In this document: piece after piece, positions 5,589 to 46,505 of the stretch
Numbering within the stretch: the first letter of the stretch is position 1
Layout: each line of letters begins with the position of its first letter
Origin: an uncultured Candidatus Saccharibacteria bacterium
GTDB lineage: Bacteria; Patescibacteriota; Minisyncoccia; Phycocordibacterales; UBA6899
DNA length: 64,000 bases
NCBI GenBank assembly: GCA_964515375.1
Contig: CAZERF010000005.1
Span: forward strand, 22,482 to 86,481
Direction: 5' to 3'
The notes under the pieces: model-generated
Databases searched by the model: none
Seen by the model: the letters and a program-made list of their open reading frames with translations, nothing else
Told to the model about the DNA's origin: nothing
Program-made: the position numbers and the translations under genes

Positions 5589-8500
5589 ATGAGTGAGGAA
5601 GTTCAAAAAACAGAGACAAAATTCGTTCACCTCCATACCCACACCCACTATTCCCTGCTTGACGGACTCTCAAAGCCGCATGAACTCGTCAAGATCGCGA
5701 AGGAAGAAGGCATGTCCGCGATCGCGATCACCGACCACGGCGCGATGTATGGAGTCATTGACTTCTACCAGGCCTGCAAAAAAGCAGAGGTCAAACCGAT
5801 CATCGGTATCGAGGCCTATGTCGCCAACCGCACGCGCTTTGACAAAGAACCAGGGATCGACAACAAGCGCTTCCACCTGACCCTTCTTGCCGAGAACATG
5901 ACGGGGTACAAGAACCTCATCAAACTCACCACCGCGGCGAACCTCGAAGGCTACTACTACAAACCCCGCATGGACAAAGACCTCTTACGCACGCATGCGG
6001 AAGGGATCATCGCGCTCTCGGGCTGCCCCGCGGGTGAGCTCGGCCGCGCGATCCTACGCGAACAAGACATGGATCATGCAAAAGAGATCATCGCCGAATA
6101 TCAGGAGATCTTCGGAAAAGAAAATTACTTCCTTGAGATCATGTGGCACGAGGATGTCGAAGGATTCGAGCAGTGGAAAAAAGCACTCATCGCCCTTTCA
6201 AGAGAAACCGGTGTTCCCCTCGTCGCAACACAAGACTCCCACTACCCCACGCTCGATCACGCCAAGGCACACCAAACACTCCTTGCGGTCTCGACCGGTT
6301 CCGATCTTGGCGAATCGGGTATCTTCCAAGGGGGTGGACGCTATCACTTCATGGGAGGTGAGGAAGCAATGACGCTCTTCCATGAGATCCCCGAAGCAGT
6401 CACCAATACCGTCATGATCGCAGATCGCTGCAATGTCGAACTCACACTGGGTAAATTTGTCTTTCCCGACTTCGATCTCCCCCCCGGAGTGACCGCAGAT
6501 GACGCGCTCGCCGAACTCACCACAAAAGGCATGAAGGAGCGAGGACTTTCAGGGGAAGAAGTTGAGGAGCGCCGTCGATACGAACTCGAGGTCATTAAAA
6601 ACAAAGGATATTCACCGTATTTTCTCGTCGTCGCCGACCTTCTTCGTTTTGCAAAAGAAGTCGGGATCTACACCACCGTCCGAGGGTCCGCCGCAGGATC
6701 GTTCGTTGCGTACCTTGCGGGGATCACCAACGTCAACCCGATCGAATTTCAACTTCCGTTCGAACGCTTCTTGAACCCCTTTCGACCCTCCGCGCCCGAT
6801 ATCGATATGGACTTCGCGGATAACCGTCGTGAAGAGGTGATCGAATATGCAAAACGCAAATATGGCGCCGACAAGGTGGCGCAGATCGGGACCTTCGGCA
6901 CAATGATGGCACGTGGTGCAGTACGCGATGTCGCCCGCGCGCTCGGCAAACCCTACGATGTCGGCGACCGCATCTCCAAGATGATCCCAATGGGCTCGCA
7001 AGGATTCCCAATGACGATCGACCACGCCATGGAACTCGAACCGGACCTGAAGAAAGTATATGACACGGAGCACGAAGCACGAGAGATCCTCGACATCGCG
7101 CGCAAGCTTGAAGGGACCGTACGGCATGTCTCGGTCCACGCGGCAGGAGTCGTGATCGCACCAAAGCCACTCGTCGAGTATGTCCCAACCCAGTTTGACC
7201 CCAAGGGTGGCAAACTCATCACGCAGTACGATATGTATACGGTCGGTGAGGACGGCGTTGGCCTCACCAAACTCGACTTCCTCGGGATCAGAAATCTTGC
7301 GATCTTGGGTGACGCGGTGCGACTCGTCAAAAAACATCGCAACATCGATATTGAGATCGAGAAGATCGACTTTGCCGACAAGAAAACATTTGCCATGCTT
7401 GCACGCGGTGAGACCGAAGGACTCTTTCAGTTGAACGGGAGCGGCATGACGAAACATTTGACAGAACTCCATCCCACGACCGTTCATGATATCAACGCCA
7501 TGGTGGCACTCTATCGCCCCGGACCGATGAACAATATTCCCGAATACATCGCGCGTAAACAGGGCAAGAAACGAATCACCTATTTTCACCCGAAAGCGGA
7601 AAAATTCCTCGCAAAATCCTATGGCGTGCTCGTCTATCAAGATGATCTTCTCTATACCGCACTCGAACTCGCCGGATACAACTGGGAATCCGTCGACAAA
7701 TTTCGCAAGGCGGTCGGAAAGAAGATCCCCGCGGAAATGGCCAAACAGCACGTTATTTTCGTCGAGGGATGCCAGTCGCACAGCAAGATGACCGCGGAGG
7801 AGGCCGAGGCGATCTGGGCACTCTTTGAACCCTTCCAAGGATACGGCTTCAACAAAGCGCACGCCGCGTGCTACGGTCGTGTCGCGTATCAGACCGCATT
7901 CATGAAGGCGAACTTTCCCGCCGAATATATGTGCGCGGTACTCACCGCGGAGTCCGGCGACACCGAGACGATCGCAACCATGATCGGCGAGTGTAAGCGC
8001 ATGAAGATCCCGGTGCTTCCTCCCGACATCAATGCCTCCGTTGCCGACTTTACTGTCGTGAAGGGAGAGACCGAAACAGAAGACCAAATTCGTTTTGGTT
8101 TGTATACGATCAAAAATCTCGGCGAAGCGATCTCCGACGCGATCATTACGGAACGTGAAGCGAACGGACACTATCGTTCCTTCACCGAATTTCTCGAACG
8201 TGTCACACACAAAGACCTCAACAAAAAATCCATGGAAGCACTCATCAAGGCGGGGGCATTCGACTCCTTCGGCGAAGACCGCGGCGCGCTCCTGCATAAT
8301 CTCGATGATGCACTCGAGTACCACAAGGCACACGCGAGAGAGAAAGAATCCTCCCAAGTCTCACTCTTTGCCGCAGTATCCGAAACGGCGCGACTCCCCT
8401 CCTTCCGCATGCGTCCCGCACCTGAAGCATCAAAGGACGATATGCTTCGCTGGGAAAAAGAGCTCCTGGGACTCTACATTTCCGGACACCCGCTCGAGAA

Positions 8501-16277: not shown

Positions 16278-19200
16278 CTAGCGTTCGATGTACTGGACGC
16301 TGGGAGGCACCCCGATGCCAGAAATGTCAAAATTTGCAAAAGAGAGTCCTGAGAGCGAGACTACTCCGCCAAACTTTCCCACCGCAGTTGGGGCAAAACG
16401 AATCACGATCGTTGTGTTCCCTTTTGAATCAAGGTGATAAGGGCATTTCCCATTAACAAGTGGCCCGGCAGAAGAAAAAATACATCTAAACATTCCACTT
16501 GCACTGTCGACGTCAAACAATCCAAATCCAAAATCAGCTGTTCCTGTATTTTGAATGGTCATTGATTGGTCGCGATATCTATTTACAACAGTTGCAGGGA
16601 ATGTTTGCCCAGAACCTAATATTGTGATGATCGACGTGAACAAACCCTCACCGTTCAGATTCATTTCAAGGGGTCCATTTATCGTATTTACTCCGGAAAA
16701 GCGAACTGTTCCGGGAAGCGACCCCGTATCCATCGGTAAGAACCGAAGCAATACATCTTTATAATTATCCTGAGAAACCGTAAACGCACACCCTGTTGCC
16801 GCCGGTTGACATGAATACGTATCACCACCATTGGAAAAGGTAACTCCGATCGACATATTACCAACTCCCACATTCCACAAACGAACATACTTCTCTTTCT
16901 CTGAAGCAAGATTTGAAGAGCCAAAATCAAGAAAATTATAAACTTCAGTATAACTATTCGGATCATCAACGCTCGTTGGCGTCAACTTCATGATCGGTGA
17001 ATTAATACCAACACCACTGATCGAACGTGATACAGAGTTATCCTCCCCATCAAATGTAATTGATGTATTAATAGGACCCGTTGCTGAAGGATAAAACGCG
17101 AAAGTAAATGAAGTGGTTGCGCCAGGCGCAAGAGAAACGACAAAACACGGAGAAGGATCGATGCACCTAAATACGGAAGTGTTCATGTATGCATCAAGAA
17201 ATACGTATGTCGCGCGGAGACCAACATTTTTGACCTCAAAAGATTTTTCAGGTGCATCACCACCCACCCTCGTCTCGGAAAAAATATGAGTAACGGGAGT
17301 GACCTCAATATACGACGAAGCGATTGAATCCCCTTCAACGTCGTAGCGTGTTGTCTTTGTCGCATAATCTCCAAAGTGATATTGGATAGTGATTTCACCA
17401 TCAAAACCACTGGCATAATTTGGTTCAAAAGCAATTTTTGCAATACGTTCTGTGTAAGTATCATTTAGAATGAACGGTCCGCAATTCTCGAAACATCTGA
17501 ATGTACTTGTTGAAGAAGTAACTTGATACCACACAGAAGTCCCCGAACTTCCTGAGCGTGCAACCCTTAATCTCAAAGACTTATTTTGAACAGGAGTATT
17601 GTAGTAAGTTGTTCCGTAATCGATAGTTCCCGAATAGACACCCGGAGTAGGAAGAGAGTACCACCCTTCATCCTCATCCTCCGCCGATATACTTACTCCT
17701 GGATTGATGCCAGTACCTTGAAACGTAACTGATGTTCCCACAATGGTGAATGACCCCGTGTGTAGACCCAGAGAGGTGGGTTTAAACGTGAATTGTGTTG
17801 TTGTTGATTGCCCTCCCCCCAGTTCAAAAGAACAGTTCTGAGCGCAAGAAAAGGCACTCGGCGTCCCAAAACTCGCGGCTGAAAGGGAGACAGTAGTTGT
17901 TCCAACTCCAATATTTCTTATCGCGTAGGATGTTGTTGCGGTTGTATTCAGTAAAACATTACCAAAATTGATCCTCGTACCTCCTGCCGCAACAAGCAAT
18001 GGTAGATCATTACCATTGGCACTTAAACTGATGCTAACTGACGGAAGTCCAGTTGGAAACTCGTTAGTCAGAGAAGCAACCGTTGATGTTGCGCCGGCGA
18101 CAAGTGGTGAAAAATGTATTGTCCCTACGAACCTATATCCCTGCGAGGGGGTCACAGAGGCGTAATGATGACCAATACCCGACACGGAGGCTGGCTCAAA
18201 CGAGAAGCCATTGCTTGGGAGACCGAGCATCCTCCCCGAAAGATCACTCAGGGAGGCTCCGCTATTTTTCACATAAACACTGATCGAAGATGTTGCGCCC
18301 ATATTCACAATACCTGCGTCCCATGAATTCCAACAAGTGTTTGACTGATAAAGACAGACCGTGAGAACAGGGATGTCCGAAACACTCGAACGCAATTCCG
18401 TTGTTGTTCCTCTACCAACCAGTGCTGTCAAAGTTGCACGATCAACGCGCGCAGGATTCGCAGATAATGGGATAAAATAAATATAAATAGCCTTTTCTTG
18501 ACCACCCAAGAGGGAGTAACGACAACCAGATATCCCACCCTGACACGAATATTCCCCTTCACCTGGAAGCACAATAGCCCCTTCAAGGAGTCCACCACCG
18601 GAGTTTTTTACCGTCAGTATCTCTGGTCCAAAATATGGGGGGTTACCCAAATAGCCAAAGCCAAAATCTACAGGACCCGAAGGAGTGATCGTTGCCTCTG
18701 GTAACACATCTTCTCCAACCGCTCTTAGTTGTATTCGCCTTGAAACAGTAGGATTGTCACATGCATAAGGAATGTTTGCAGTACAATTAAATATCACTTC
18801 CTGGTCCCATTCACCCTCTTCCACGGGGGCGATTTTTATTGTTACAGGAACATCAGTTTGCCCGGGAGCAAGCGTATCCGCACAACCAGCAGTACAATAA
18901 AACGGTGCCGAGAGCGTCGAGATATTATAATTAAGAGACCTCAAACCAGTATTGCTTACATAAAAAGTTTTTGTCTGGACATCGCCAGTAAGAATATTAT
19001 CAAAAATAGAATCTCCGGAAGGACTCACAATAAAGCGCGGGTTGTTGGGACGATCAACAGTATACTCACGACTAAGATAGAGTTGAGCCGAATAAAAATT
19101 CTTTTCTGTGGTTGCGCAAGTCTCAGAATCAGCATAAGTAGGAGGGAGGCCCCTTTTTTCTGCGGCAAGATTGATTTGATGCTTCACAGAACAGATCTCT

Positions 19201-19640
19201 CCGCCCCAAAATTCAATTTTCATCACGTGATCCCCGTCGGCCTGCCGTCCGATATTGTACGAAAAGGTACCGACAATAGCATTGTTCGGATCAGTATTTT
19301 CGGGAAGCTCAATATGACAACCCGCAGGGGCAGGACGTTGCATGCAATCAGCATCAGAATGTTCCTTATTAGGAACCTCAAAACCATCCTGCTTCACATA
19401 AATATTTCCCACCCACAACGGAGGTAGCATAAACTCTCCCGTCACAATAACATCATCCTCAAACCTGTAATCTTGCTCTCTCGCAGGAGTGATCCATTTT
19501 GTAATAATATCTCCTTCTGCAGCAACAGCATAAGAGGGAGAAATAAGACAGAGCAGTAAAACAAAAAAGAGGAGTGAAAAGAACCTCTTACGCAATTTCC
19601 TTAGTGGCAACATAATATTCTGAGAATTAAATAAGATCAC
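16278..19640 (-). CDS. Large secreted surface protein (1120 aa) with repeated beta-sandwich-like domains bearing paired cysteines
   Basis: Signal peptide; Ser/Thr/Gly/Asn-rich. Repeats of pattern F/Y-x-C-x(2-6)-C-x-F...L.PG...F.P...G...G (for example FSCAQNCSFELGGGQ, FRCFENCGPFILND, FRCIDPSPCFVVSLAPG, YSCQPAATGCAFTVS, FRCIFSSAGPLVNGKCPYHL). Clearly lower GC than flanking genes. Confidence 0.7.
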   Translation of the reverse strand: MILFNSQNIMLPLRKLRKRFFSLLFFVLLLCLISPSYAVAAEGDIITKWITPAREQDYRFEDDVIVTGEFMLPPLWVGNIYVKQDGFEVPNKEHSDADCMQRPAPAGCHIELPENTDPNNAIVGTFSYNIGRQADGDHVMKIEFWGGEICSVKHQINLAAEKRGLPPTYADSETCATTEKNFYSAQLYLSREYTVDRPNNPRFIVSPSGDSIFDNILTGDVQTKTFYVSNTGLRSLNYNISTLSAPFYCTAGCADTLAPGQTDVPVTIKIAPVEEGEWDQEVIFNCTANIPYACDNPTVSRRIQLRAVGEDVLPEATITPSGPVDFGFGYLGNPPYFGPEILTVKNSGGGLLEGAIVLPGEGEYSCQGGISGCRYSLLGGQEKAIYIYFIPLSANPARVDRATLTALVGRGTTTELRSSVSDIPVLTVCLYQSNTCWNSWDAGIVNMGATSSISVYVKNSGASLSDLSGRMLGLPSNGFSFEPASVSGIGHHYASVTPSQGYRFVGTIHFSPLVAGATSTVASLTNEFPTGLPSVSISLSANGNDLPLLVAAGGTRINFGNVLLNTTATTSYAIRNIGVGTTTVSLSAASFGTPSAFSCAQNCSFELGGGQSTTTQFTFKPTSLGLHTGSFTIVGTSVTFQGTGINPGVSISAEDEDEGWYSLPTPGVYSGTIDYGTTYYNTPVQNKSLRLRVARSGSSGTSVWYQVTSSTSTFRCFENCGPFILNDTYTERIAKIAFEPNYASGFDGEITIQYHFGDYATKTTRYDVEGDSIASSYIEVTPVTHIFSETRVGGDAPEKSFEVKNVGLRATYVFLDAYMNTSVFRCIDPSPCFVVSLAPGATTSFTFAFYPSATGPINTSITFDGEDNSVSRSISGVGINSPIMKLTPTSVDDPNSYTEVYNFLDFGSSNLASEKEKYVRLWNVGVGNMSIGVTFSNGGDTYSCQPAATGCAFTVSQDNYKDVLLRFLPMDTGSLPGTVRFSGVNTINGPLEMNLNGEGLFTSIITILGSGQTFPATVVNRYRDQSMTIQNTGTADFGFGLFDVDSASGMFRCIFSSAGPLVNGKCPYHLDSKGNTTIVIRFAPTAVGKFGGVVSLSGLSFANFDISGIGVPPSVQYIER

Positions 19641-20071
19641 TCCGAAACAACAGGCTTCCCGTCCTTAAAGGGAACCTTTCCGGTAACGACAACAGACTGA
19701 GACGAGGAGGAGAAATAGTCAAATCGTGAAAGATTTGAATCAAGCTCCAACATGCGTTGATCAAACACCTTTGCATTCTCTTCCGCTTGCTCAGGTGAAG
19801 GAGGAAGTGAACCAAAATCCTCTTCTGTTTCAGGTTGAGGCAAAAGGGGAAAAGGAAACTTTCTATTTCCCTGAAAATATACAAGCGTCATAACCGACAA
19901 AAGAACTAAAAAGGAGAACAGAAGGACATACTTGCAAACGCGACATTCCTTCATTTCGCCGATCTCGGAGTGCACATCCTGGGGTTCACTTACTCCCTCA
20001 CTAATGTTGTCTTTCATAGATTTTCTCATTATATCTCTGGGACCACACTTGAAGCAATGTTGTCTATCCAC
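19637..20071 (-). CDS. Small membrane protein with N-terminal Zn-ribbon-like CxxC...CxxC and one TM helix
   Basis: MDRQHCFKCG...ECRVCKYVLLFSFLVLLSVMTLVYF. Stop overlaps the start of the downstream giant gene (ATGA). Confidence 0.45.
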   Translation of the reverse strand: MDRQHCFKCGPRDIMRKSMKDNISEGVSEPQDVHSEIGEMKECRVCKYVLLFSFLVLLSVMTLVYFQGNRKFPFPLLPQPETEEDFGSLPPSPEQAEENAKVFDQRMLELDSNLSRFDYFSSSSQSVVVTGKVPFKDGKPVVSE

Positions 20072-20123
20072 AAAATGGCGAATGCGTCACGAATGAGCAG
20101 GTAGGGGGATCTTGTATCTCAGA

Positions 20124-20133
20124 ATTATAAGCA
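20124..20133 (-). promoter_or_regulatory. Extended -10 promoter TGcTTATAAT for the Zn-ribbon/giant-protein operon
   Basis: Minus strand: ttttttgTGCTTATAATtc. Nearly identical to the element at 38265-38273. Confidence 0.45.
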
Positions 20134-20182
20134 CAAAAAAGTAGTATCAGAAAGGCGGCAAACCCGAGGTTGGCCCGGTATC

Positions 20183-20300
20183 CATTTGAGTGTGCTCGTT
20201 CTGTGGAGCCGGCAGTCAGGCTTGAACTGACGACCTACGGTTTACAAAACCGTTGCTCTACCAACTGAGCTATGCCGGCATTACGCGAGCACACTCAAAT
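20183..20300. repeat. Perfect 16-bp inverted repeat (catttgagtgtgctcg / cgagcacactcaaatg) bracketing tRNA-Thr
   Basis: Arms at 20183-20198 and 20285-20300. The spacer contains the complete tRNA. Confidence 0.8.
20204..20280 (-). tRNA. tRNA-Thr (anticodon UGU), CCA encoded
   Basis: GCCGGCAUAGCUCAGUUGGUAGAGCAACGGUUUUGUAAACCGUAGGUCGUCAGUUCAAGCCUGACUGCCGGCUCCA folds as a cloverleaf: 7-bp acceptor stem, GCUC/GAGC D-stem, ACGGU/ACCGU anticodon stem, loop UUUGUAA, T-arm GUCAG-UUCAAGC-CUGAC. Confidence 0.9.
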
Positions 20301-36713: not shown

Positions 36714-36896
36714 GCACAAAAGCTACTTTCTCAACAATATCCAAACACAATACTTCCAACGTAAAAAGTAGGGCAGAATTTCCATCCCAAGCGAGATGTT
36801 GCTTTTTGAGTGACTACGGAGCACGACAGTGCGAGTCTGAGCAAAAAGTCAGCAGACTTTTATGCGTGCACTCAAAAAAGCAATGTCGAGTGAGCT

Positions 36897-37358
36897 TTAC
36901 CGGTACGGCCAGATCTGCTCGATCTTCTTGATCCGTCGCACGTGACGCTCTTCGTCGAGAAATTGCGTCTCGAGCCACAGCTTCACCGCCGCCTTCGCTT
37001 CATCAAGCGAAAGGAAGCGTGCACCGAGCGAGAGCACATTCGCATTATTGTGTTCGCGCGAGAGTTTGATGAGATCGAGCGGCCCGCCGTAGTAGAGGGC
37101 GCAACGCACGTTCGGATAGCGATTCGCCACGATCGCCTCTCCCTGCCCCGATCCACCGAGTACCACCGCACGCGAAGAAGAAGGGTCATGCGAAACTTCC
37201 TGCGCGGCGAGCGTAATGAAGTCCGGGTAGTCATCTTCGGGATCATTCTGATGCGCCCCCATGTCGGCGACCGTATACCCGAGATCTTTCTCGATATACG
37301 AGGCCAATGCTTCCTTCATATCATATCCCGCATGATCGGTTGCAATATATATTTTCAT
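36897..37358 (-). CDS. rpiB: Ribose-5-phosphate isomerase B
   Basis: MKIYIATDHAGYDMKEAL..., RpiB/LacAB family. Confidence 0.9.
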   Translation of the reverse strand: MKIYIATDHAGYDMKEALASYIEKDLGYTVADMGAHQNDPEDDYPDFITLAAQEVSHDPSSSRAVVLGGSGQGEAIVANRYPNVRCALYYGGPLDLIKLSREHNNANVLSLGARFLSLDEAKAAVKLWLETQFLDEERHVRRIKKIEQIWPYR

Positions 37359-37449
37359 GCATCAATTGTACCCGCGGATAGTGTTTTGGAAAAGATACTC
37401 ACATAAACACGACATGTTTCGATACCAAAAAACTTGCGATCCATTCTTG

Positions 37450-37480
37450 TACAACAAAAAGCCCTTACCGAAGTAAGGGC
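37450..37480 (-). terminator. Terminator after hypothetical gene 37531-38196
   Basis: agcccttac-cgaa-gtaagggct with T5 on the minus strand. Confidence 0.6.
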
Positions 37481-37530
37481 TCCAAGGGTCAAAGACCCAG
37501 ATTTGAAACAAGGTACCAAGCGACCAAGGG

Positions 37531-38196
37531 CTATAAGTCGCAGAAGCACAACAGGCAGAAGTCGCCGCTCCAGTCAAACTCGAAGTAACCGAGGTAGAAC
37601 TCCCAGCCACCGTCCGAGTGGCGGTACACGAACGGCACCCCGTGGTAGCCGACGGAGTCGGTCCAGAGCGCATCCTTCTCGTCGAAGGACACAGTCCATT
37701 TACCGACAGGGAATTCGTCCGCCTTCTGGTCCTGCAACAGCGTCACGCCCTGCCCGCCCACGAGGATGGCTCCCTGCTTCTTCAGGAAGGTCATGCAGTC
37801 TTCACTGGTGACCGTCGAGAGGATTGGGAAGATTCGCACGCGGTACTTCTTGCCCGGCTCCAGCTTGTTCGTCGCCTTGGCGAAGTTCTTGCTGTTCAGG
37901 TCATCGTTGAAGTAGTAGGTGGTCGGGAGCTTCTTGGTCTTCTTGGCGAAGGTGTCGAGCTGGGTGTCGTGCTTGTAGTCTGCCGGCACCGTGAACTCGA
38001 AGTCCTTGACCGCCGGACCGAAGCGCTGGTCCACCATGGCGAGTTTCTGAAGGATGGGCTTCACTTGCTCTTGCAACGCGCACCCCTCCGCAATGACCCT
38101 TTCCGCTTCATCTTCCGAGAGTTCGAGCGTGTCGACCGCAACCTCAAAGATCCTCGCGATGCGAGCCCCTTGTATCGACTTCATCTTTTTCATCAT
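37531..38196 (-). CDS. Hypothetical protein with strikingly GC3-rich codon usage
   Basis: 221 aa, no recognisable motif. Codons dominated by GAG/CTC/GTC/CGC, unlike neighbours. Antisense ORF artefact 37618-38271 is typical of high-GC3 genes. Confidence 0.5.
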   Translation of the reverse strand: MMKKMKSIQGARIARIFEVAVDTLELSEDEAERVIAEGCALQEQVKPILQKLAMVDQRFGPAVKDFEFTVPADYKHDTQLDTFAKKTKKLPTTYYFNDDLNSKNFAKATNKLEPGKKYRVRIFPILSTVTSEDCMTFLKKQGAILVGGQGVTLLQDQKADEFPVGKWTVSFDEKDALWTDSVGYHGVPFVYRHSDGGWEFYLGYFEFDWSGDFCLLCFCDL

Positions 38197-38264
38197 GATC
38201 TTTCTTCCTCAATGTACGATCCGGAGTCTGCCGGAGCAGTTACAAGGTTATGTTGCTATCTTTT

Positions 38265-38273
38265 ATTATAGCA
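38265..38273 (-). promoter_or_regulatory. Extended -10 promoter TGcTATAAT with T-rich upstream tract
   Basis: Minus strand ttcttttttgTGCTATAATaaaag, about 70 nt upstream of the 38196 ATG. Confidence 0.45.
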
Positions 38274-38543
38274 CAAAAAAGAAAAACTTGCAACTATTTG
38301 TATAACCTCACCTCTTTCTGCACTTCCTGCTCTTGTGCCACTCTGTAGTGAGACGACAATAATATCAAATGGTCTTTTCAAAAAATTTTCTTTTTTGCCT
38401 CTACCTTTTGGAAGACACGCATAATTTTCTGCTGAAAATTTGCTCCTCTCGCGCCGCCGCGCTCCGAAAGTCTTCCAAAAGCTAAGGCAGTGTTCGCGTG
38501 ACACAAAAAGTATGGGCGTTTCGGGGGCACACAAAGTTTCTTT

Positions 38544-39626
38544 CTATTTTCCAGATTTTGTGCGATTGTCTTGCTTGCAGAGCATCTGACAATTCCCCGC
38601 GATCGTTTTTCCTCCCTCGTGCCACGGCATGACATGGTCGGCCTCCATTTCGTCTATCGAAAAATGCTTCTGACACTTCACACAAATACCTTTTTGTTTT
38701 TCATATGCTTCACGTTTCTGGTTTTCCGTGAAAGCGCGAATGCTTAAGTATCGTTCATTACGCGTGAGCACATACTCATAAATACCGGACTTCTTCGTCA
38801 CGTCCTCATCCTGCATGAGCCTTGCGATCTCGATCTCAATACTCTTTGAAGCGATCTTTGCATCCTTGAATGCATTATAGAGTGGGCCAAATGAGACCCC
38901 CTTCATTTCTTTGCGATAATTCGGGAAGGTCGTCTGTATCCAATTGATGACACCCTGAAAATATAGCCATAATTCATTTGCATTCGGTTCATGCTGATGT
39001 GTTGCCATGTACTGCTCGATGTTTCCGCCACTTACCCAATCAATAGCGGTCTCCAAATAATCCTGCCGTATCGGCGAGCCGGCCAAATAATTACTCCCAA
39101 TCGCATAAGCGGGACACCCTGATTTGCTAAAATACTTCTTTGCTTCAGTGAGCCATGTGCCGGTATAGATTGCATTGCGGAGTTCTTGGTCAGTCAGTTT
39201 TTCTCCTGCAATATTTATAGTCTTGAACCAATCCAGTTTTTCCTTGTCGTTCCCCTCACAAAAATAGACCATCAATTTATACGCAAGAATCTGTTCCCTC
39301 TCAACGTCTTCGAGGTTGTGAAAGTATTGATAGTTGATCGAGAAGTTTCCGGTCACATATTCACAAATACTAATCGTTCGCTGCTGTCCGTCGAGCACCT
39401 CGAACGAATCATTGCTATTTTTCACCCAATACATGACGTTGAGGGGGAAATTTTTACGCACCGTTTCGATCACCGCATCACGTTGTTTATCCTTGTAGAC
39501 AAACTCGCGCTGATATTTGGGGCGAATATTTAGTCTTCCGCAATAACCCACCACGCCTTCTTCGTTGCTGTTAACGTATTTATCAACAACTTCTCGAATC
39601 GTTATTTCTTTCAGTTCGATTTTCAT
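38544..39626 (-). CDS. DUF262 (ParB-like, DGQQR) + C-terminal HNH nuclease; GmrSD-like / type IV restriction-type enzyme
   Basis: VLDGQQRTISI motif. C-terminal HNH: EADHVMPWHEGGKTIAGNCQMLCKQDNRTK. Low-GC region. Confidence 0.8.
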   Translation of the reverse strand: MKIELKEITIREVVDKYVNSNEEGVVGYCGRLNIRPKYQREFVYKDKQRDAVIETVRKNFPLNVMYWVKNSNDSFEVLDGQQRTISICEYVTGNFSINYQYFHNLEDVEREQILAYKLMVYFCEGNDKEKLDWFKTINIAGEKLTDQELRNAIYTGTWLTEAKKYFSKSGCPAYAIGSNYLAGSPIRQDYLETAIDWVSGGNIEQYMATHQHEPNANELWLYFQGVINWIQTTFPNYRKEMKGVSFGPLYNAFKDAKIASKSIEIEIARLMQDEDVTKKSGIYEYVLTRNERYLSIRAFTENQKREAYEKQKGICVKCQKHFSIDEMEADHVMPWHEGGKTIAGNCQMLCKQDNRTKSGK

Positions 39627-39629
39627 TTT

Positions 39630-40650
39630 TTATATTTGCTTTCTTGCCTTAATAATTATTCTTGAAAATGGGCACTTTGTCTGACCATTCACAGTCACAG
39701 AAATATCTGTTCGTCCACGATAATTCTTCTCCACACCCAAAGTTTTACCTAAATCTCCAAAAGGTATACCAACAAGTTCAAATTGTTTCGGGTTGTATTT
39801 ATCAAGAAAGGTATCTGGAACACCCATAGCACCCTTGTAGTCAATCGGAATATCTGACACTCTTCCAACTTCAATAGCATCGTAGTTGTCATACTTAGGA
39901 TAGTCATCAGGAGAGTATCTTTTGTAAAGAATTAATTCCTCGTGCCTCTTTGGAGTATCAAGATTGGTGAACCAACTTGTATTCCCCATCGGCATATATT
40001 TTTGTCCTTCAATAACAACAATACTTTTGCTCTCATAATTATCTGGTACAAGGTATTTTTTTGGACCATTATTTATACCCAAGCCACAACTTATTATCTT
40101 GAATCAACGGAAAAATTTCCTTGTAGTGTATGGCGTTATTTGTGCCAATAATCAGAAATTTCTTTTTATGCTCAAATAGCTGTGCAAGATACTCACGAAA
40201 GAGAGAGAACGGAGGATTCGTCACAACAATATCAGCCTCCTTCAGGATCGCAACACACTCATCGCTACGAAAATCACCATTTTGCTTGAGAGGTGTTTTA
40301 ATAACATCGTCGTCATTGATCTTGCCGTTCTCATCCATATCACCGGTCAATTCGAGTTTATACGTGGGCTTTTCGTAATCAAAATGCGTTGTAACTAATT
40401 TCTTGATACCGAGATAAGAAAAATTAAGCGCAAAATAACGCCAAAAGTTGCTTTCGAGAGGATCGTCACAATTACAGAAGATCACCTTCCCTTTCAAGTG
40501 GTGCTTGTAGTGACTCACTTCTTTTTCAATATCGGCGAGTTGTGTGTAAAACTCGTCCTTTTTTGCCTGACTTGCCTTGTGGAGATTCTTGTTTGACGCT
40601 TTCGTTTCCATATCTTCGCAGTGCTCACAAGTGATGATTATGAGTATCAC
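39630..40650 (-). pseudogene. EcoRI-methylase-family N6-adenine DNA methyltransferase, interrupted by a +1 frameshift near 40070-40082
   Basis: N-terminal ORF (40069-40650) has DEFYTQ, CNCDDP, DIVVTNPPFSLFREY, HYKEIFPLIQDNKLWLGYK*. The C-terminal continuation is in another frame (39630-40082). Deleting one nt in 'tataaataatgg' restores about 340 aa. Confidence 0.65.
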
Positions 40651-40687
40651 TTATTGGCAATCTACCACAAAAAATATGATACTCATA
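40638..40687. promoter_or_regulatory. 11-bp perfect inverted repeat (tatgagtatca ... tgatactcata) in the divergent MTase/XRE intergenic region; candidate operator
   Basis: Arms at 40638-40648 and 40677-40687. Confidence 0.4.
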
Positions 40688-40727
40688 GTCCGTCGACTTA
40701 TAAGCATCATCGCCCTACGCTGAAGGG

Positions 40728-40943
40728 GTGAAGAAAAAGAGCAACATCTTAATGCAATTTGGAGAAAGAGTACGCGCATTACGCAAGCAAAAAGGTATCA
40801 GCTCTCAATTGGAGCTTGCACTCAAGACCGGTCTCGACCGCACCTACATCGGCGGGATTGAACGTGGCGAAAGAAATGTTGCTCTCATCAACATCGAAAA
40901 AATAGCAAAAGCCCTCGGAGTGAAGATCGAGGAGCTTTTCTGA
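40728..40943 (+). CDS. XRE-family helix-turn-helix transcriptional regulator (C-protein-like)
   Basis: FGERVRALRKQKGISSQLELALKTGLDRTYIGGIERGERNVALINIEKIAKAL. Confidence 0.85.
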   Translation: MKKKSNILMQFGERVRALRKQKGISSQLELALKTGLDRTYIGGIERGERNVALINIEKIAKALGVKIEELF

Positions 40944-41004
40944 TTCTCAAAAAATGGCGATATTTTGCACCTGTGGGCTCCCCTGTGGCGCAAGGAAGGG
41001 CGGT

Positions 41005-41526
41005 TCACTTGCCGGTGATTCTCCCAACCAGAAGCAAGTCCGAGTACGAACCCGAGATCGAAGGAAATTGTTCGAGTAAAAGCAGATCTTTCACTTTATT
41101 GTGCTCCGCCATATATTGCGTATCATCCCCCTCTTCCCGCATTACGGTTTCAAGCTCAATAAATGTCCCGAGTTTTGCTACGGTGTCAAGATGTATTCTT
41201 GTATTTTTAAAAAGATAGAGATCGCGTCGTTTTTCCACAACAATTTTAACGCCATAGCTTATATCAAGGAGGAATTTAAGGATAGGAACGAAAAATTGGT
41301 AGACTTTTAACATTCGATACGAGGATTCTCTTGTTCCGTTTTTGTTCACCCTGGAATAAAAAATGATTTCCGATCGCCCTCCTTCTTCCCGAATTTTCAG
41401 TCGTTTTGCACCAAGAAGATAGTAGGTATCCTTTTGTTCAAGGACGCCTTGGAATACCGCAAAACCAAGACGGCCCCGCAAAGAAGAGAGTGCGTCGACG
41501 CGTACCTTGATTTCAAGATTTCTCAT
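41005..41526 (-). CDS. CYTH-domain protein (class IV adenylyl cyclase / triphosphate tunnel metalloenzyme family)
   Basis: MRNLEIKVRV N-terminal strand; RLKIREEGG; C-terminal DTVAKLGTFIELE. Overlaps the upstream radical SAM gene by 14 nt. Confidence 0.7.
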   Translation of the reverse strand: MRNLEIKVRVDALSSLRGRLGFAVFQGVLEQKDTYYLLGAKRLKIREEGGRSEIIFYSRVNKNGTRESSYRMLKVYQFFVPILKFLLDISYGVKIVVEKRRDLYLFKNTRIHLDTVAKLGTFIELETVMREEGDDTQYMAEHNKVKDLLLLEQFPSISGSYSDLLLVGRITGK

Positions 41527-42355
41527 GCTTGCTCTTATTTCTTAAAAATTCAATCGCATCTGCTGCTCCCTCAAAAAACTCCCTCCCGCTATTTTGTACG
41601 AGAGAAGAAAGAAATTCCATTTGACCATCTCTCTTGACCATTTGAAAAGAATTTCCAGGAAGCATCCATTGAGGCTGCAGCTCAGATTCTATTTTTGAAA
41701 CATAGTCTGGGAGAAGAATCCTCACCTTGTCTTCCTTCAGGTAAAGAGGTCCTGAGTAGTAGCCAAAACAATAATCCTTTGTTTTATTAATAATATCTTC
41801 TAATTCATGATCAGAAACATCAGGAAGTAACGGGCGTATCGCGGTAGTAGTCGGAATTCCCCTCTGAAAAACAGAGGAGAGGGTTTCGATTCTTTTTTCA
41901 GGGTGAGGCACCCTTGGTTCATATTTTTCTAATAGAGACTCATCTAGACAAGGTAGAGATATGGAAAATGAAAAAATATTTCCATTTTCCTGCATTCTCA
42001 CATTAATCTCTCCTAATGCATCCACAAAACCCTCGGGCAGTGACAACTTTGTAATAACCGAGATATCTCTTCCGTATGTGCTTAATATTTCAAGAATCCT
42101 TAAGGACTCTTGCTTGTTCTGAAAGAACTCAGTATCACAACCAAGCATGATGAGGCGGATATGCTCCGGAAGATTTTGAAGCAACTCAAATTGTTGCTCA
42201 TTGAGATAGGCAACTTTTCGAGATTGCTCCTGAGACATCTCCTCAGCAAAACAATAAGTGCACTCGAGAGGACAACTGAGTTTTGAATACGTTAAAACCC
42301 TTTCTTTGTCCAATTTAAGACCTTGACTCTCAAATGACTCAATCGGATTCTCCAT
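41513..42355 (-). CDS. Radical SAM enzyme, spore-photoproduct-lyase-like (COG1533-type) family
   Basis: CPLECTYCF = CX3CX2C cluster motif 27 aa from the N-terminus. Own TATAAT and AAGGTGA start context at 42360-42395. Confidence 0.7.
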   Translation of the reverse strand: MENPIESFESQGLKLDKERVLTYSKLSCPLECTYCFAEEMSQEQSRKVAYLNEQQFELLQNLPEHIRLIMLGCDTEFFQNKQESLRILEILSTYGRDISVITKLSLPEGFVDALGEINVRMQENGNIFSFSISLPCLDESLLEKYEPRVPHPEKRIETLSSVFQRGIPTTTAIRPLLPDVSDHELEDIINKTKDYCFGYYSGPLYLKEDKVRILLPDYVSKIESELQPQWMLPGNSFQMVKRDGQMEFLSSLVQNSGREFFEGAADAIEFLRNKSKHEKS

Positions 42356-42411
42356 GTGTTCACCTTAATTCGTCTGGATTATACAAGTAGGGCACCTCTA
42401 ACAAATTCATA

Positions 42412-43461
42412 TTAAAGATGTCGCGCCACTTCTTCGACGTGCTTGACGAGCGTATTGGTATACCCCATCTCGTTGTCATACCATGCGAGGACCTTCACCA
42501 GGTCACCTCCAACAACGCGAGTGAGCGCGAGGTCGGCGATCGACCCTTCGAGGCGGCCGACAATATCGGAGGAGACAAGGTCTTCTTCGGTCACCGCAAA
42601 AAGTCCGCTCCAGCGTGCTTCCTTGGCGGCGTCGCGAAGGATCTGATTGACCTCTTCGACCGATGTCGGGCGCTTGGCGATAAAGGTCACATCCGCGATC
42701 GAGCCGGTGATGACCGGAACACGAATTGAAATTCCATCAAAGTTCCCCTTCATGTCGGTAATAACTTCCCCCACGGAGATCGCGGCTCCGGTCGAAGCGG
42801 GGATCATGTTTGCCGATGCCGCGCGACCACCGCGCGCATCCTTGCCGCCGGGTCCGTCGACAACGGCTTGCGTTCCCGTCATTGCATGCGTGGTGTTCAA
42901 AAGTGCCTTGGCGATACCGATCTTCTCGTGCAAGATCTGAATGACCGGAGAGACCGCATTGGTCGTACACGATGCGTTCGACGAGATCTGACATCCGGAG
43001 AGTACATCGTGATTGATTCCCATCAGCACCATCGCGCTTGTCACTCCGTCCGTCGGGGTACCCTTGGCGGGAGCGGTGATCACGACACGTTTTGCGCCGG
43101 AAGCAAGGTGCACCTGCGCTTTGTCGTATGCGGTGAAGTGTCCTGTCGATTCGATCACAATGTCGATATTCAAGCGCGCCCACGGAAGTTTCGTCGCGTC
43201 TTTCTCTTGCACCAAGATCACTTTCTTTCCATCGACGACAAACCCCGCTTCTTCCGTCTCGGTCGCGGGAACAAAAGAAACAGCAAATCCTGTTCTTCCA
43301 TATGCGGTGTCATATTTCAAAAGATACGCCATGTTCTCGGGATCACCGAGATCGTTGACCGCAATGACCTCAATATCCTCACGGTCCTTCACGAGCTTGT
43401 AGAACGCGCGTCCAATGCGTCCGAATCCGTTAATGGCGATACGTACTTTTCTCTCTGACAT
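42412..43461 (-). CDS. gap: Glyceraldehyde-3-phosphate dehydrogenase
   Basis: INGFGRIGR; SNASCTTNAVSP active-site Cys. Confidence 0.95.
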   Translation of the reverse strand: MSERKVRIAINGFGRIGRAFYKLVKDREDIEVIAVNDLGDPENMAYLLKYDTAYGRTGFAVSFVPATETEEAGFVVDGKKVILVQEKDATKLPWARLNIDIVIESTGHFTAYDKAQVHLASGAKRVVITAPAKGTPTDGVTSAMVLMGINHDVLSGCQISSNASCTTNAVSPVIQILHEKIGIAKALLNTTHAMTGTQAVVDGPGGKDARGGRAASANMIPASTGAAISVGEVITDMKGNFDGISIRVPVITGSIADVTFIAKRPTSVEEVNQILRDAAKEARWSGLFAVTEEDLVSSDIVGRLEGSIADLALTRVVGGDLVKVLAWYDNEMGYTNTLVKHVEEVARHL

Positions 43462-43571
43462 AGGAAAATAAGGTTAATGAATATTGAGAAACGCATAGCG
43501 GTGACAACACACTACACGTCGAGTACATTATACCTCAAGACGGGAAGAAACGTCATGTCACGCGAACAGCA

Positions 43572-46505
43572 TCACACCAAAAGATCACTCTTTTGCACAC
43601 CGCCGGAAAGAGTTCGCGGCTCGGTGCGCAATACCTCTTTATAAGTTCCGTCCAACTGTTTCGCCTCAACGGTAATGAAATACTCGCCGGGAGGAACAAG
43701 GAAGTAAAAGCGTCCGAACTCGTCAGCGACCGTCTTTTTCATGATCGTATTCAACCCGGGAAGCCACACCTTCACAAGAGCAAACGGAACGGGCTTGCCA
43801 GTCGCCTTGTCCTTCACGAAGGTGATCTTGTGTGTCACCTTCCACGCAAGTTGGAAGATGAGAATCGCAAGATAGATGCCAACAACAACCATATTCAAGA
43901 CTGAAGGCGTGACCAACAAAGATCCGAGCGAGAAGAGCAATCCGACATAAAAGAGAATATTGAAGATCCACAGACGAACATTCTTGCGACGCGAATAAAC
44001 CTTGAAGACTTGATCTTGATTCTTGGCAAACTCGTTCCAGTCAAACTCTACCGGATCAAGCGGAATATTGTATTGCACCACACCCCCCTCTCGGACATGG
44101 AACGGGTCACCGAAATACAAATTCTCGTAAAACTCATCACGCGCCTTCCCTTTTAATTTGTCGGAGGGGAATTTGTAGTGTGTCTTGTTGGCCTCAATGA
44201 TATATTCGCCGGGATTCAAGAAAAATCCATATCGCCCGTCGAGGTCGGTGATCGCTTCTCCCTTTGACTGTGCTCCATCGCGGATCCGAGCAAGCACGTA
44301 TGCGGGGTCAAGTGGTCGTTTCGTTACCGAGTCATACACGACACCCCACGGCTCATTCTTCTTGCGTCGAAAGATACCGGTCAAAAGTCCGAGGAATTTG
44401 AGGAGGAGGAGATAAAGGTCATAGGCCGACGCGACGTTGGTCGAAAGAAGAATGACCTGAGAGGCACCGACCGCAACGCCGACCGGCGTCGCGACAGGGG
44501 CGACAGTATTGACGGGGTTTTCGATGGTCTCGGTAACCTGCGTCACCACTTGGGCGACGGAAGGAGGGAGGATCTCGGTAAATCTGATCTCGCGGAAGAC
44601 GTCAAAGAAACCCTGGAGTTGTGTAACATTGCCACGCTCCGTATCCAAGACGCGGATCACAAAGGCGCGACTTCCCGCATCTCCGAGCCCGGGAAGGATC
44701 GCATCATAGGCGGTGCGTTCGACGTTGAGTGAAAGTAAAAATGACTGAGTCCCCTTCGCGCCGGAATTTACTGAAAGTGCGATGGTCACAATGCGCGCGG
44801 GGAGCTTTTCGACCGGAATCGAGACGAGGAGCGCGCGTTCTCCGTTCACGCGCACGACACCGTTGCGAGAAAAAAGACGTTTACGCACTTCTCCGATCTC
44901 GAAGAAATTCACATCAGAAAGCGTCAAAGAGGACACTTTCACATCAGGGGTTCCGGTCCCAACAAAGCCAATGAAGGGGTCAGTCGATGTGGGGAGTACG
45001 GGTGGCGGTATCGTAGGTGATGATGTTGACGTAGATCCGGGGATCGTTGTTGTCCCTATTCCACCTCCTCCCGGCGGAGGAGTCTCTCCACCGGGAGGAG
45101 GTGGGGGTGGTGGAGGAGGTGGTGGCGGAGGGGGTGGGGGTGGTGGCGGAGGGGGTGGTGGGTCGATCACCCCCGTCTCGGTCACACCGGAATAGATCGC
45201 GCCCGAAGAGTAATTACCCGAGGTGTCACGCGCGAACGCAGTGTAATAATACCGCGTTCCCGTCGCAAGTCCCACATCGACGACCGATGTCGCGCCTCCG
45301 TCATAAACAAGAACACCATCAAAAGGATCCACAGGATAACCGGTCGTGCCACGCACGACACGCACCGTCGCAAAATCGGAATCAAGCGGATTCACCCACG
45401 AGAGCGCGATTGAATTTAAACTTGGTGTTCCTGAAAAACTTGCAGGGTTTGCAGGCGGGGTCGTATCAGGCGGAGGCGGAGGCGTGAGTGTTCCAAACGA
45501 ACCGGTCACGGGAGCGCTCACATTCCCGGAAAAATCACTTGCGGTAAGACGGTAATAGTACAGAGTTCCCGTCGCAAGCCCACCGATACCCATCGCATGT
45601 GTTGCCCCGTAAGCGATCTCGTTCGCGATCCCGAGTCCATACACCGTTGATGTCCCCCACTCGATCGTTGCGAGTGCCGGCTCATTCGTCAAAAAACTCA
45701 CCGTTGCTGATGTGTACGTCGTACTCGCCAAAACTCCGGAGATAACAGGGGGCGTCGCGTCGATCGTTGCAAAGACCCACGAAGAGTTTCCCGCGATGCC
45801 ACCAAAGTTGTTGCCCGCCTGATCGGCAAATGTCCCTCCGTCTACAGTGACATAATACGTCGTCGCGCTTACCAAAGGAGATGGCAGTGTGATCGTCACA
45901 ATGTTGCCCGACACGCTCACTCCCGACTCCGCGACCGGGATCGTCGCGACAAGTGTATCATCGGAAAGACGGCGAACAACAACATTCCCCGACACCTTAT
46001 TCACAAGTTCGGACATAGCGATAGAGAGCGTCGTATTGAGCACCACTCCAGTTGCACCGTTGGCGGGAGAAAGGGACGAAACAGTCGGAGGATTGGTGTC
46101 GCCTCCGCCACCCCCCGAAGGCGGATCGGTCGTTGCAGAATCACCCGCCGAAGGAACGGAATAATTAAAAGAAGTATCGAAGGCGCGGATCACATATGCA
46201 TAGGTGGTATCACCCGTGAGTCCGGAATCTTGATACGAGATCGCTGTTGTCGTCGCGATCGAAATGCCGTCACGATAAACAACGTAGCCGGAAACCGAAA
46301 CATTATCGGTCGACGACGCCCACACAAGGTTGATCTGCGAAGACGACACAGCGGTCGCGGAGAGGCCGGAAGGAGCGGACGGGGGGACAACATCAGAAAG
46401 CACTGAAAGGCCGATATTGAACTGCTGAGCGGCGACAACAGACCCCGATCCAAAAAAGAACGAGAGCAAGAGGAGTATCGAAAATATACGCGTCAATATC
46501 TTCAT
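43572..46505 (-). CDS. Large surface protein: signal peptide, FN3-like repeats, 25-residue poly-proline tract, C-terminal TM segments and carboxypeptidase-regulatory-like domains
   Basis: Several FN3-type motifs (INLVWASSTDNVSVSGYVVYRDG, TTYAYVIRAFD); P25; GVVYDSVTKRPL...DGRYGF and FALVKVWLPG...GRFYFLVPPGEYFITVEA. Confidence 0.65.
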   Translation of the reverse strand: MKILTRIFSILLLLSFFFGSGSVVAAQQFNIGLSVLSDVVPPSAPSGLSATAVSSSQINLVWASSTDNVSVSGYVVYRDGISIATTTAISYQDSGLTGDTTYAYVIRAFDTSFNYSVPSAGDSATTDPPSGGGGGDTNPPTVSSLSPANGATGVVLNTTLSIAMSELVNKVSGNVVVRRLSDDTLVATIPVAESGVSVSGNIVTITLPSPLVSATTYYVTVDGGTFADQAGNNFGGIAGNSSWVFATIDATPPVISGVLASTTYTSATVSFLTNEPALATIEWGTSTVYGLGIANEIAYGATHAMGIGGLATGTLYYYRLTASDFSGNVSAPVTGSFGTLTPPPPPDTTPPANPASFSGTPSLNSIALSWVNPLDSDFATVRVVRGTTGYPVDPFDGVLVYDGGATSVVDVGLATGTRYYYTAFARDTSGNYSSGAIYSGVTETGVIDPPPPPPPPPPPPPPPPPPPPPPPGGETPPPGGGGIGTTTIPGSTSTSSPTIPPPVLPTSTDPFIGFVGTGTPDVKVSSLTLSDVNFFEIGEVRKRLFSRNGVVRVNGERALLVSIPVEKLPARIVTIALSVNSGAKGTQSFLLSLNVERTAYDAILPGLGDAGSRAFVIRVLDTERGNVTQLQGFFDVFREIRFTEILPPSVAQVVTQVTETIENPVNTVAPVATPVGVAVGASQVILLSTNVASAYDLYLLLLKFLGLLTGIFRRKKNEPWGVVYDSVTKRPLDPAYVLARIRDGAQSKGEAITDLDGRYGFFLNPGEYIIEANKTHYKFPSDKLKGKARDEFYENLYFGDPFHVREGGVVQYNIPLDPVEFDWNEFAKNQDQVFKVYSRRKNVRLWIFNILFYVGLLFSLGSLLVTPSVLNMVVVGIYLAILIFQLAWKVTHKITFVKDKATGKPVPFALVKVWLPGLNTIMKKTVADEFGRFYFLVPPGEYFITVEAKQLDGTYKEVLRTEPRTLSGGVQKSDLLV
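45080..45160. repeat. CCN/GGN microsatellite encoding P25
   Basis: Plus strand (ggn) about 27 repeats. Potential slippage-prone tract inside a surface-protein gene. Confidence 0.7.

Follow-up and report, generated by a model that had tools for sequence, protein, structure and literature searches.

Restriction-modification (R-M) systems of the PvuII type, the class of C.PvuII, C.BamHI and C.Esp1396I, combine separate methyltransferase (M) and restriction endonuclease (R) genes with a small helix-turn-helix controller (C) protein, have a bipartite operator (C-box) with a central GT just upstream of C, and are mobile among phyla, plasmids and phages. A second group of proteins, GmrSD, BrxU and SspE, joins an N-terminal DUF262 domain carrying the motif DGQQR to a His-Me finger nuclease in one chain. 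Defence hotspots and variable regions flanked by core genes have been described in Escherichia, Pseudomonas and Vibrio. Here we analyze a 64-kb stretch of DNA, the window (positions 22,482–86,481 of contig CAZERF010000005.1, assembly GCA_964515375.1), from an uncultured Candidatus Saccharibacteria bacterium assigned to Patescibacteria (Paceibacteria), in which 5,053 nt of additional DNA separate gap from rpiB. This segment (window positions 37359–42411) is likely an accessory insert specific to its lineage, at a naturally variable point in the conserved gap cluster and built from three independent modules that include a complete Type II R-M cassette. The modules would be the C-regulated cassette itself, a radical SAM/CYTH operon of Patescibacteria type, and orf221, a gene of a family targeted by diversity-generating retroelements (DGRs) with a hypervariable C-terminus. 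The insert, its genes and its borders are as follows, in window coordinates.

37359–42411, no strand: whole insert, from the gap stop codon (42412) to the rpiB start codon (37358), 5,053 nt.
42412–43461, minus strand: gap.
41513–42355, minus strand: radical SAM enzyme, 280 amino acids, CxxxCxxC at C28/C32/C35, distantly like spore photoproduct lyase (SPL) and PA0069 (Pfam Radical_SAM, 1e-12).
41005–41526, minus strand: CYTH (triphosphate tunnel) protein, 173 amino acids, in a 14-nt overlap with the radical SAM stop (Pfam CYTH, 2.7e-9).
40728–40943, plus strand: C protein, 71 amino acids, divergent from M and R (PADLOC Control_protein PDLC03665, 1.8e-24; Pfam HTH_3, 6e-15).
39630–40611, minus strand: M, EcoRI-family N6-adenine DNA methyltransferase, 326 amino acids once one A is removed from 40072–40074 (Pfam; PADLOC MTase_II).
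38544–39626, minus strand: R, restriction endonuclease, 360 amino acids, with a DUF262/ParB-like NTPase domain (DGQQR) and a C-terminal zinc-finger HNH domain (Pfam; PADLOC).
37531–38196, minus strand: orf221, belonging to a family of DGR variable proteins in Patescibacteria (homologues and family alignment).
36897–37358, minus strand: rpiB, followed by rpe and a split transketolase.

In the direction of transcription the order is gap, radical SAM, CYTH, C, M, R, orf221 and rpiB, and C is the sole island gene on the plus strand. A preliminary description of this DNA had recognized a low-GC block of about 4.2 kb (38200–42400) between rpiB and gap. Computed composition is deviant and bears this out: sliding GC is 0.36–0.46 over 38.2–42.4 kb versus about 0.55 on both flanks (overall GC, 0.515), and the five low-GC island genes have z(GC) values of -3.2 to -5.2 relative to the 46 other window genes (GC 0.527±0.029; GC content at third codon positions, GC3, 0.572±0.065). 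The block lies where it was placed, but the true insert is longer, occupying all of 37359–42411 and taking in orf221.

Relatives were collected by a GAPDH protein scan, one genome per species, which returned 80 loci. The order gap-rpiB-rpe-tktN-tktC, as in the window, was found at 62 Patescibacteria loci, with gap-rpiB spacers of at most 100 nt (22 loci), 100–500 nt (17), 0.5–1.5 kb (11) and more than 1.5 kb (12). The longest measured 3,979 nt, versus 5,053 nt in the window, and the four closest relatives had spacers of 25 (L001), 11 (L002), 10 (L067) and 5 nt (L003). Homologues of R, M, CYTH, the radical SAM enzyme and orf221 were absent from the 80 fetched loci; a single weak match to an island protein, at 38% identity to C, was located in L022, on the other side of gap and about 3.6 kb away. 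The block is accordingly accessory, since each of the 62 relatives with gap beside rpiB lacks it here, and none of the relatives compared conserves it in place. Because the island genes are absent from the 80 loci and the spacers of the closest relatives are short, the block appears to be lineage-specific, with orf221 as part of it.

Metagenome-assembled genomes are chimera-prone, and the nearest available relative, L001, shares just 75% GAPDH identity with this organism, so we considered whether relatives have lost an ancestral block, or whether the block is a chimera of assembly or binning. Either is hardly credible given that spacers of 100 nt or less occur in 22 relatives of several Paceibacteria lineages, that island GC deviates by 3–5 standard deviations, and that both junctions were recovered in independent assemblies at 99.8–100% identity outside orf221. 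The gap/radical SAM junction is present in assemblies of six other sequencing runs (L210–L215), among them a 40-kb Logan contig extending from beyond gap into M (L210) and a contig spanning gap to R (L211), while L212–L215 cover the gap/radical SAM end. The orf221/rpiB junction is present in two further assemblies, L208 and L209, which run from R through orf221 to rpiB and equal the window sequence outside orf221; L208 continues to the transketolase genes. The island is not a chimera.

As the preliminary description had noted, the insert has neither an integrase nor flanking direct repeats. No integrase-like gene was found among the island and window open reading frames (ORFs) by inspection of the ORF list and a Pfam scan, and the borders show only short, chance-level matches in place of direct repeats. 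There is no tRNA near the island either, the only one in the window lying at 20204–20279, and Rfam gave no matches in 36.5–43.7 kb. Thus, of the features that define integrative elements, the insert displays absence in relatives and deviant composition without an integrase, a tRNA target or flanking repeats. Since integrase and repeats are lacking, the likeliest route of acquisition would be homologous recombination through the conserved core genes on either side. Two inverted matches near the borders may be due to chance: a 40-nt inverted repeat, 75% complementary, pairing 36839–36878 (rpe-rpiB intergenic region) with 38406–38445 (R-orf221 spacer), and a perfect 13-nt match between 38491–38503 and 43556–43568.

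Other genomes carry different cargo between gap and rpiB, including HepT/MNT (L045), two AbiEii genes (L023), a split Abi_2 gene (L025) and DUF3800 (L027), as well as non-defence genes for RsgA, CBS, a DEAD helicase and surface proteins. The gap-rpiB junction is a variable spot and not purely a defence hotspot. It resembles core-gene-flanked defence hotspots in its fixed core-gene junction and variable cargo (R-M, toxin-antitoxin, Abi) without an integrase. It differs in that the cargo is not solely defensive, with RsgA, CBS, helicase and surface protein genes also represented, that the host is a reduced Patescibacteria genome, and that the sample comprises 62 divergent genomes instead of a one-species pangenome.

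The R protein matches GmrSD_N/DUF262 (PF03235) at 4e-20 and 73 bits, with LDGQQRT at residues 78–84, and its C-terminus matches HNH (PF01844, 2e-10) and HNH_5. Pfam detected no DUF1524 in R at E ≤ 0.01. Instead, residues 1–360 aligned with positions 1–372 of the PADLOC Type II model REase_II PDLC03418 (E = 2.3e-143). At least 8,000 homologues, all about 360 amino acids long, were found, the best 120 being 76–89% identical, and those named among these 120 come from Flavobacteria and several Patescibacteria groups. An AlphaFold2 (AF2) model of R reached a pLDDT of just 51.7 because the underlying alignment was shallow (76–100% identity). The preceding gene, M, is divided between two ORFs, 40069–40650 and 39630–40082, which correspond to positions 1–192 and 193–344 of the EcoRI_methylase profile (PF13651; 4e-77, 260 bits and 6.5e-45, 154 bits), and it carries an NPPF motif (VTNPPFS). 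The M stop codon (39630–39632) lies 3 nt ahead of the R ATG (39626). Pfam and coordinates therefore confirm a DUF262(DGQQR)+HNH gene with an EcoRI-family N6-methyladenine (m6A) methyltransferase 3 nt upstream in the same orientation.

This linkage is a property of the family. Among 115 R-M loci examined (80 metagenome, 31 viral and 4 Flavobacterium), wherever the upstream sequence is long enough (about 100 loci), R is preceded on its own strand by an EcoRI-family M gene, with L139 and L150 as the only exceptions. Of 78 complete pairs, 63 have no more than 25 nt between the end of M and the beginning of R, often with overlap, and the operon is spread over many phyla, plasmids (Firmicutes, Proteobacteria, Actinobacteria, Bacteroidetes) and the 31 viral contigs. 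The R homologues of the two exceptions (L139:728–1810 and L150:1756–2859) have no methyltransferase anywhere on their contigs, and that of L139 sits amid small phage-like ORFs; both are possibly solitary or homing-type derivatives.

The divided M gene had been described as frameshifted, and the window does contain a single extra base.

40072–40074, minus strand: single-base insertion (AAA versus AA) splitting M, in this assembly only.

At this site the window reads GGGTATAAATAATGG, creating an in-frame TAA stop, whereas three independent assemblies of the same strain, L081 (SRR36123268), L210 (SRR35539484) and L211 (DRR784957), read GGGTATAATAATGG and encode an intact 326-amino-acid M. Across the M-R stretch these assemblies otherwise match the window at 99.8–100% identity, being the same or one base off. 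The split is an error or a rare variant of one assembly, and since the three others of this strain carry a whole M, the system counts as intact in the population and not as decayed. A programmed frameshift in M was rejected, given that the same DNA without the extra A occurs in those assemblies.

The divergent gene of the XRE class, previously reported as a regulator, is indeed present and divergent, but it encodes an R-M controller protein and not a generic regulator. Its control region comprises two elements.

40680–40705, plus strand: C-box operator TACT-CAT-AGTC-CGTC-GACT-TAT-AAGC, 22 nt ahead of the start codon of C (sequence read and published consensus).
40636–40649, minus strand: single inverted half-operator copy (reverse complement TGATACTCATAATC), 25–38 nt upstream of the M start codon (inverted repeat).

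The PvuII-class consensus is GACT-N3-AGTC-N4-GACT-N3-AGTC with a conserved central GT in the spacer (PMC2175313). The window C-box fits it at 13 of 16 symmetry positions, keeps the central GT, and agrees with PvuII itself in its CAT spacer and in having the variant TACT as half-box 1A (PMC2175313). It lies within the 116 nt that separate the start codons of M and C and overlaps a promoter-like site (40654–40683, promoter scan). The second copy, a 14-nt inverted repeat (I15) with 93% complementarity to 40677–40690, may serve as a half-operator for M. A C gene adjoins M-R in seven other loci, in six of them co-directional and in one divergent, like the window. The six co-directional loci (L097, L098, L100, L108, L118, L171) carry, about 120 nt ahead of C, another conserved palindrome resembling an operator, CTTGCAAAAGAATGCAAG, and four of them (L097, L098, L100, L171) also a conserved G-rich hairpin-like leader, AAATGGAAAAGGAGGGGTTTGGGGAGGAATTTTCCATTT. 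The co-directional variants thus make up a further class of controller serving this M-R pair.

The preliminary description had assigned the DUF262+HNH gene to a Type IV, GmrSD-like category, an assignment that does not hold. R has no DUF1524 and aligns with a Type II REase model along its entire length, M lies directly upstream in nearly all of about 100 loci, and this locus has a C protein and a C-box. A run of the defence predictor PADLOC labelled R REase_II, M MTase_II and the XRE protein Control_protein. With methyltransferase motifs, a linked REase-family endonuclease, a C protein and a C-box, the cassette has the sequence attributes of a Type II system; of those of GmrSD, R has DUF262 with DGQQR, but neither DUF1524 nor the habit of acting without a cognate methyltransferase, M being lacking in 2 of about 100 loci. 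Because of the C protein, the C-box, the full-length REase_II match and the M-R linkage, the cassette is predicted to be a conventional C-regulated Type II system and not a Type IV enzyme.

A stand-alone, modification-dependent Type IV nuclease beside a decayed methyltransferase, in other words a degraded R-M remnant, would account for the split M in the window sequence and for the domain logic that R shares with GmrSD, BrxU and SspE, namely DUF262 with DGQQR followed by a His-Me nuclease. We regard this explanation as improbable: the nuclease domain is HNH (PF01844) and not DUF1524, the Type II model covers R over its full length, about 100 loci in different phyla have M closely linked on the upstream side, three independent assemblies have it intact, and a C protein with a C-box is a hallmark of systems whose nuclease is toxic without its methylase. 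R is much shorter than GmrSD, BrxU and SspE, at 360 amino acids, and is linked to an m6A methyltransferase in all but two of about 100 loci and sometimes to a C protein.

As a Type II system, the cassette would work as follows. The EcoRI-family M would methylate adenine at target sites in host DNA; R, translated from the same transcript, would cut unmethylated incoming DNA through its HNH active site, with cleavage presumably blocked by methylation; and the PvuII-class C protein would bind the C-box and time expression on arrival of the cassette in a new cell, a role predicted from its family and operator. Compared with PvuII-type systems, the C gene does not precede R but points away from a co-transcribed M-R operon, there is an extra single half-operator before M, and R is a DUF262+HNH protein, not PD-(D/E)XK.

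Several results weigh against an ordinary Type II cassette acquired as an insert. Contrary to the usual Type II pattern, R exceeds M in conservation in 94% of 3,081 locus pairs, with mean identities of 0.686 for R and 0.577 for M. Palindrome avoidance, tested on 747 kb of pooled R-M-family loci versus 1.1 Mb of control loci, yielded no single candidate for the recognition site; GGCC, CTAG, CATG and GATC were depleted in the R-M loci (observed/expected 0.55–0.61), among many others. Full-text literature searches for a characterized prototype (DUF262+HNH Type II, PF13651, DUF262+EcoRI) returned only GmrSD, SspE, Menshen or methods lists. The extra A in M could be a real rare variant and not an assembly error, and the mechanism of insertion is wholly a matter of inference.

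The greater conservation of R, together with the sensor role of DUF262, leaves a small chance of a non-classical mechanism with a less conventional role for this domain. DUF262 of R could sense the m6A mark made by M, much as SspE senses phosphorothioate, with M as a licensing partner in a modification-sensing defence. DUF262 domains are NTPase sensors of DNA modification in all characterized cases cited in reviews, R is far more constrained than M, and L140, L175 and L207 have two or more M genes in tandem before R. Control by a C protein, on the other hand, fits the classical toxicity logic, and the PADLOC model labels the family a Type II REase. We judge m6A sensing unlikely and favor the conventional Type II system.

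The radical SAM/CYTH pair reported in the block was confirmed by Pfam. The CYTH protein scored 37.6 bits versus a cut-off of 23.2, matched PDB 2dc4 at 3e-7, and has the invariant residues N3-x-E5-x-K7, K44, R46, E47, R59, K99, R101, E124 and E126. Its N-terminal signature is N-x-E-x-K instead of ExExK in six of six aligned members, with basic and acidic tunnel residues kept. Every one of the 263 radical SAM homologues with an organism name comes from Patescibacteria, and a radical SAM gene followed by an overlapping or abutting CYTH gene occurs in five other Patescibacteria lineages (pairs noted at L087, L088, L089 with L216, and L091 with L092, besides the window strain). Elsewhere the pair has varied housekeeping surroundings, never near an R-M system, and in L088 a NUDIX gene directly follows it.

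Assignment of the radical SAM enzyme to a described family is less straightforward. It shares a radical SAM core with CxxxCxxC with SPL/COG1533 enzymes and prokaryotic viperins, and a confident AF2 model (pLDDT 91.6) gave SkfB and SPL as the best PDB folds. However, no structure is closely related, the TM score being just 0.57, no sequence match was found in the PDB, and the protein falls far below family cut-offs, with 67 bits to the NCBIfam PA0069 family versus a cut-off of 360 and an E value of 9e-4 to PADLOC pVip over residues 27–102 only, which is not a family-level match. An obligatory CYTH partner is characteristic of neither family, and the CYTH protein had no PADLOC match. A profile search of 1.84 billion representatives recovered 304 radical SAM relatives at E ≤ 1e-10, and none was found in viral contigs (IMG/VR). 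Among longer relatives, the fusion partner is NUDIX, at either end, in four, a 2H phosphoesterase (2H/2'-5' RNA-ligase-like) in one and a "GT4-conflict" glycosyltransferase in one (P0379, P0386, P0405, P0436, P0363, P0443). Of these, P0363, which has no CxxxCxxC segment, is possibly an artefact of gene calling. Fusion of CYTH to the radical SAM domain in relatives of 395–434 amino acids was considered and rejected, because their C-terminal extensions do not resemble the CYTH profile (hhalign probability 0.1).

Most economically, the pair is read as a nucleotide-directed two-enzyme module whose substrate is probably a nucleotide triphosphate or a related compound, and as a passenger of the island and not part of the R-M system. 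Full-text literature searches combining both terms found no paper describing a radical SAM and CYTH pair. Given this, the strict conservation of the pair as overlapping genes in six Patescibacteria lineages, the fusions to NUDIX, 2H and GT4-conflict domains and the NUDIX neighbour in L088, we tentatively raise a more specific proposal, which we hold to be possible though not probable, of an undescribed module for nucleotide modification. Its radical SAM enzyme would modify a nucleoside triphosphate or related nucleotide, with CYTH processing the triphosphate, in conflict or defence as with viperins, or in repair or salvage of damaged nucleotides. The association of a radical SAM enzyme with nucleotide-phosphate enzymes recalls the logic of viperins.

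The third module, orf221, is flanked by two predicted signals.

38265–38293, minus strand: promoter-like site for orf221, TTGCAA-17-TATAAT with TG extension (consensus match only).
37458–37483, minus strand: intrinsic-terminator-like hairpin 3' of orf221, an 11-bp stem followed by a T run (terminator-like scan).

The orf221 family comprises about 230 Patescibacteria proteins with no Pfam domain, and its members occupy unrelated gene contexts (three examined). A homologue with 71% identity in L093 (Pacebacteria, JAIPIY010000001) is a DGR target. The last 125 nt of that gene, the variable repeat (VR), pair with a template repeat (TR) 340 nt downstream (L093:5540–5664 and 6007–6131), 20 of 23 mismatches fall at TR adenines, and genes for bAvd (minus strand) and an RVT_1 reverse transcriptase (RT) follow. 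In an alignment of 25 family members (A3), the C-terminal 45 or so residues are hypervariable on a fixed scaffold. The family of the window gene thus shares with DGR variable proteins of candidate-phyla bacteria the hypervariable C-terminus, and its L093 member the VR/TR pair, adenine-specific mismatches, bAvd and RT; the window copy differs in being without a TR, Avd or RT within the 64-kb window, and its between-strain variation spans about 560 nt, beyond the VR.

Between L208 and the window there are 79 differences, which affect 32 codons synonymously and 33 non-synonymously, all within 38066–37542 inside orf221, with 100% identity on both sides, and contig L082 ends exactly at 38066, the left breakpoint of this block. 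Comparison of orf221 across L208, L209 and L081 revealed two alleles in otherwise 100% identical genomes. This looks like allele replacement by recombination in one strain background.

With a GC3 of 0.847 (z = +4.2 versus the 46 other window genes), orf221 does have a bias opposite to that of the low-GC genes, as the preliminary description stated, but its suggestion of different donors is not supported. Homologues were much richer in GC3 than the host in every case checked (L093, L094, L096 and L208), with 0.63 at a locus GC of 0.38, 0.71 at 0.42 and 0.80 at 0.49. GC3 richness is a trait of the family and not a donor signature. Speculatively, frequent recombination with GC-biased repair (gene conversion) could lie behind the excess.

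The mosaic nature proposed for the island is borne out by its three modules, which never occur together elsewhere (115 R-M, five radical SAM/CYTH and three orf221 contexts). Their adjacency here, the fusion of radical SAM relatives to NUDIX, 2H phosphoesterase and GT4-conflict domains, and the Abi and toxin-antitoxin genes at the same junction in other genomes could suggest a single functional defence island or system of all six or seven genes, in which the radical SAM/CYTH pair and orf221 cooperate with R-M. Such cooperation is very improbable, with radical SAM, CYTH and orf221 near none of 115 R-M loci, an R-M system in none of the five radical SAM/CYTH or three orf221 contexts, no PADLOC match for CYTH and only the 9e-4 match to pVip for its partner, and radical SAM relatives not found in viral contigs. 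An insert of three independent modules remains the reading we prefer.

Two further features of the window lie outside the insert. A second low-GC patch at 16278–20279 (GC 0.44, GC3 0.37–0.43, z about -3) encodes a 1111-amino-acid Ig-like/ASH-domain surface protein and a 130-amino-acid ORF, adjoins the window's tRNA-Thr (20204–20279), and may be another acquired segment. Beside gap, a Big_5/fn3 surface protein with a poly-proline tract (43572–46505) has 977 amino acids versus 970 in the near-identical assembly L210 (L210:3872–6784), a difference that suggests repeat-length variation.

The centrepiece of the island is an intact, ordinary and widely travelled R-M system of a known kind. Its presence indicates that a broadly mobile cassette, common to Flavobacteria, Firmicutes plasmids and phages, reaches Patescibacteria, and that the very small genomes of these bacteria keep variable cargo at fixed core-gene junctions without an integrase. 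The locus also bears on how such regions are interpreted. A DUF262+HNH protein is not automatically Type IV, a single-base frameshift in a metagenome-assembled genome calls for comparison with other assemblies before a system is pronounced decayed, and a GC3 anomaly can reflect a gene family and not a donor. The less ordinary parts of the island are the radical SAM/CYTH pair and a DGR-target gene that has swapped alleles in otherwise identical genomes.

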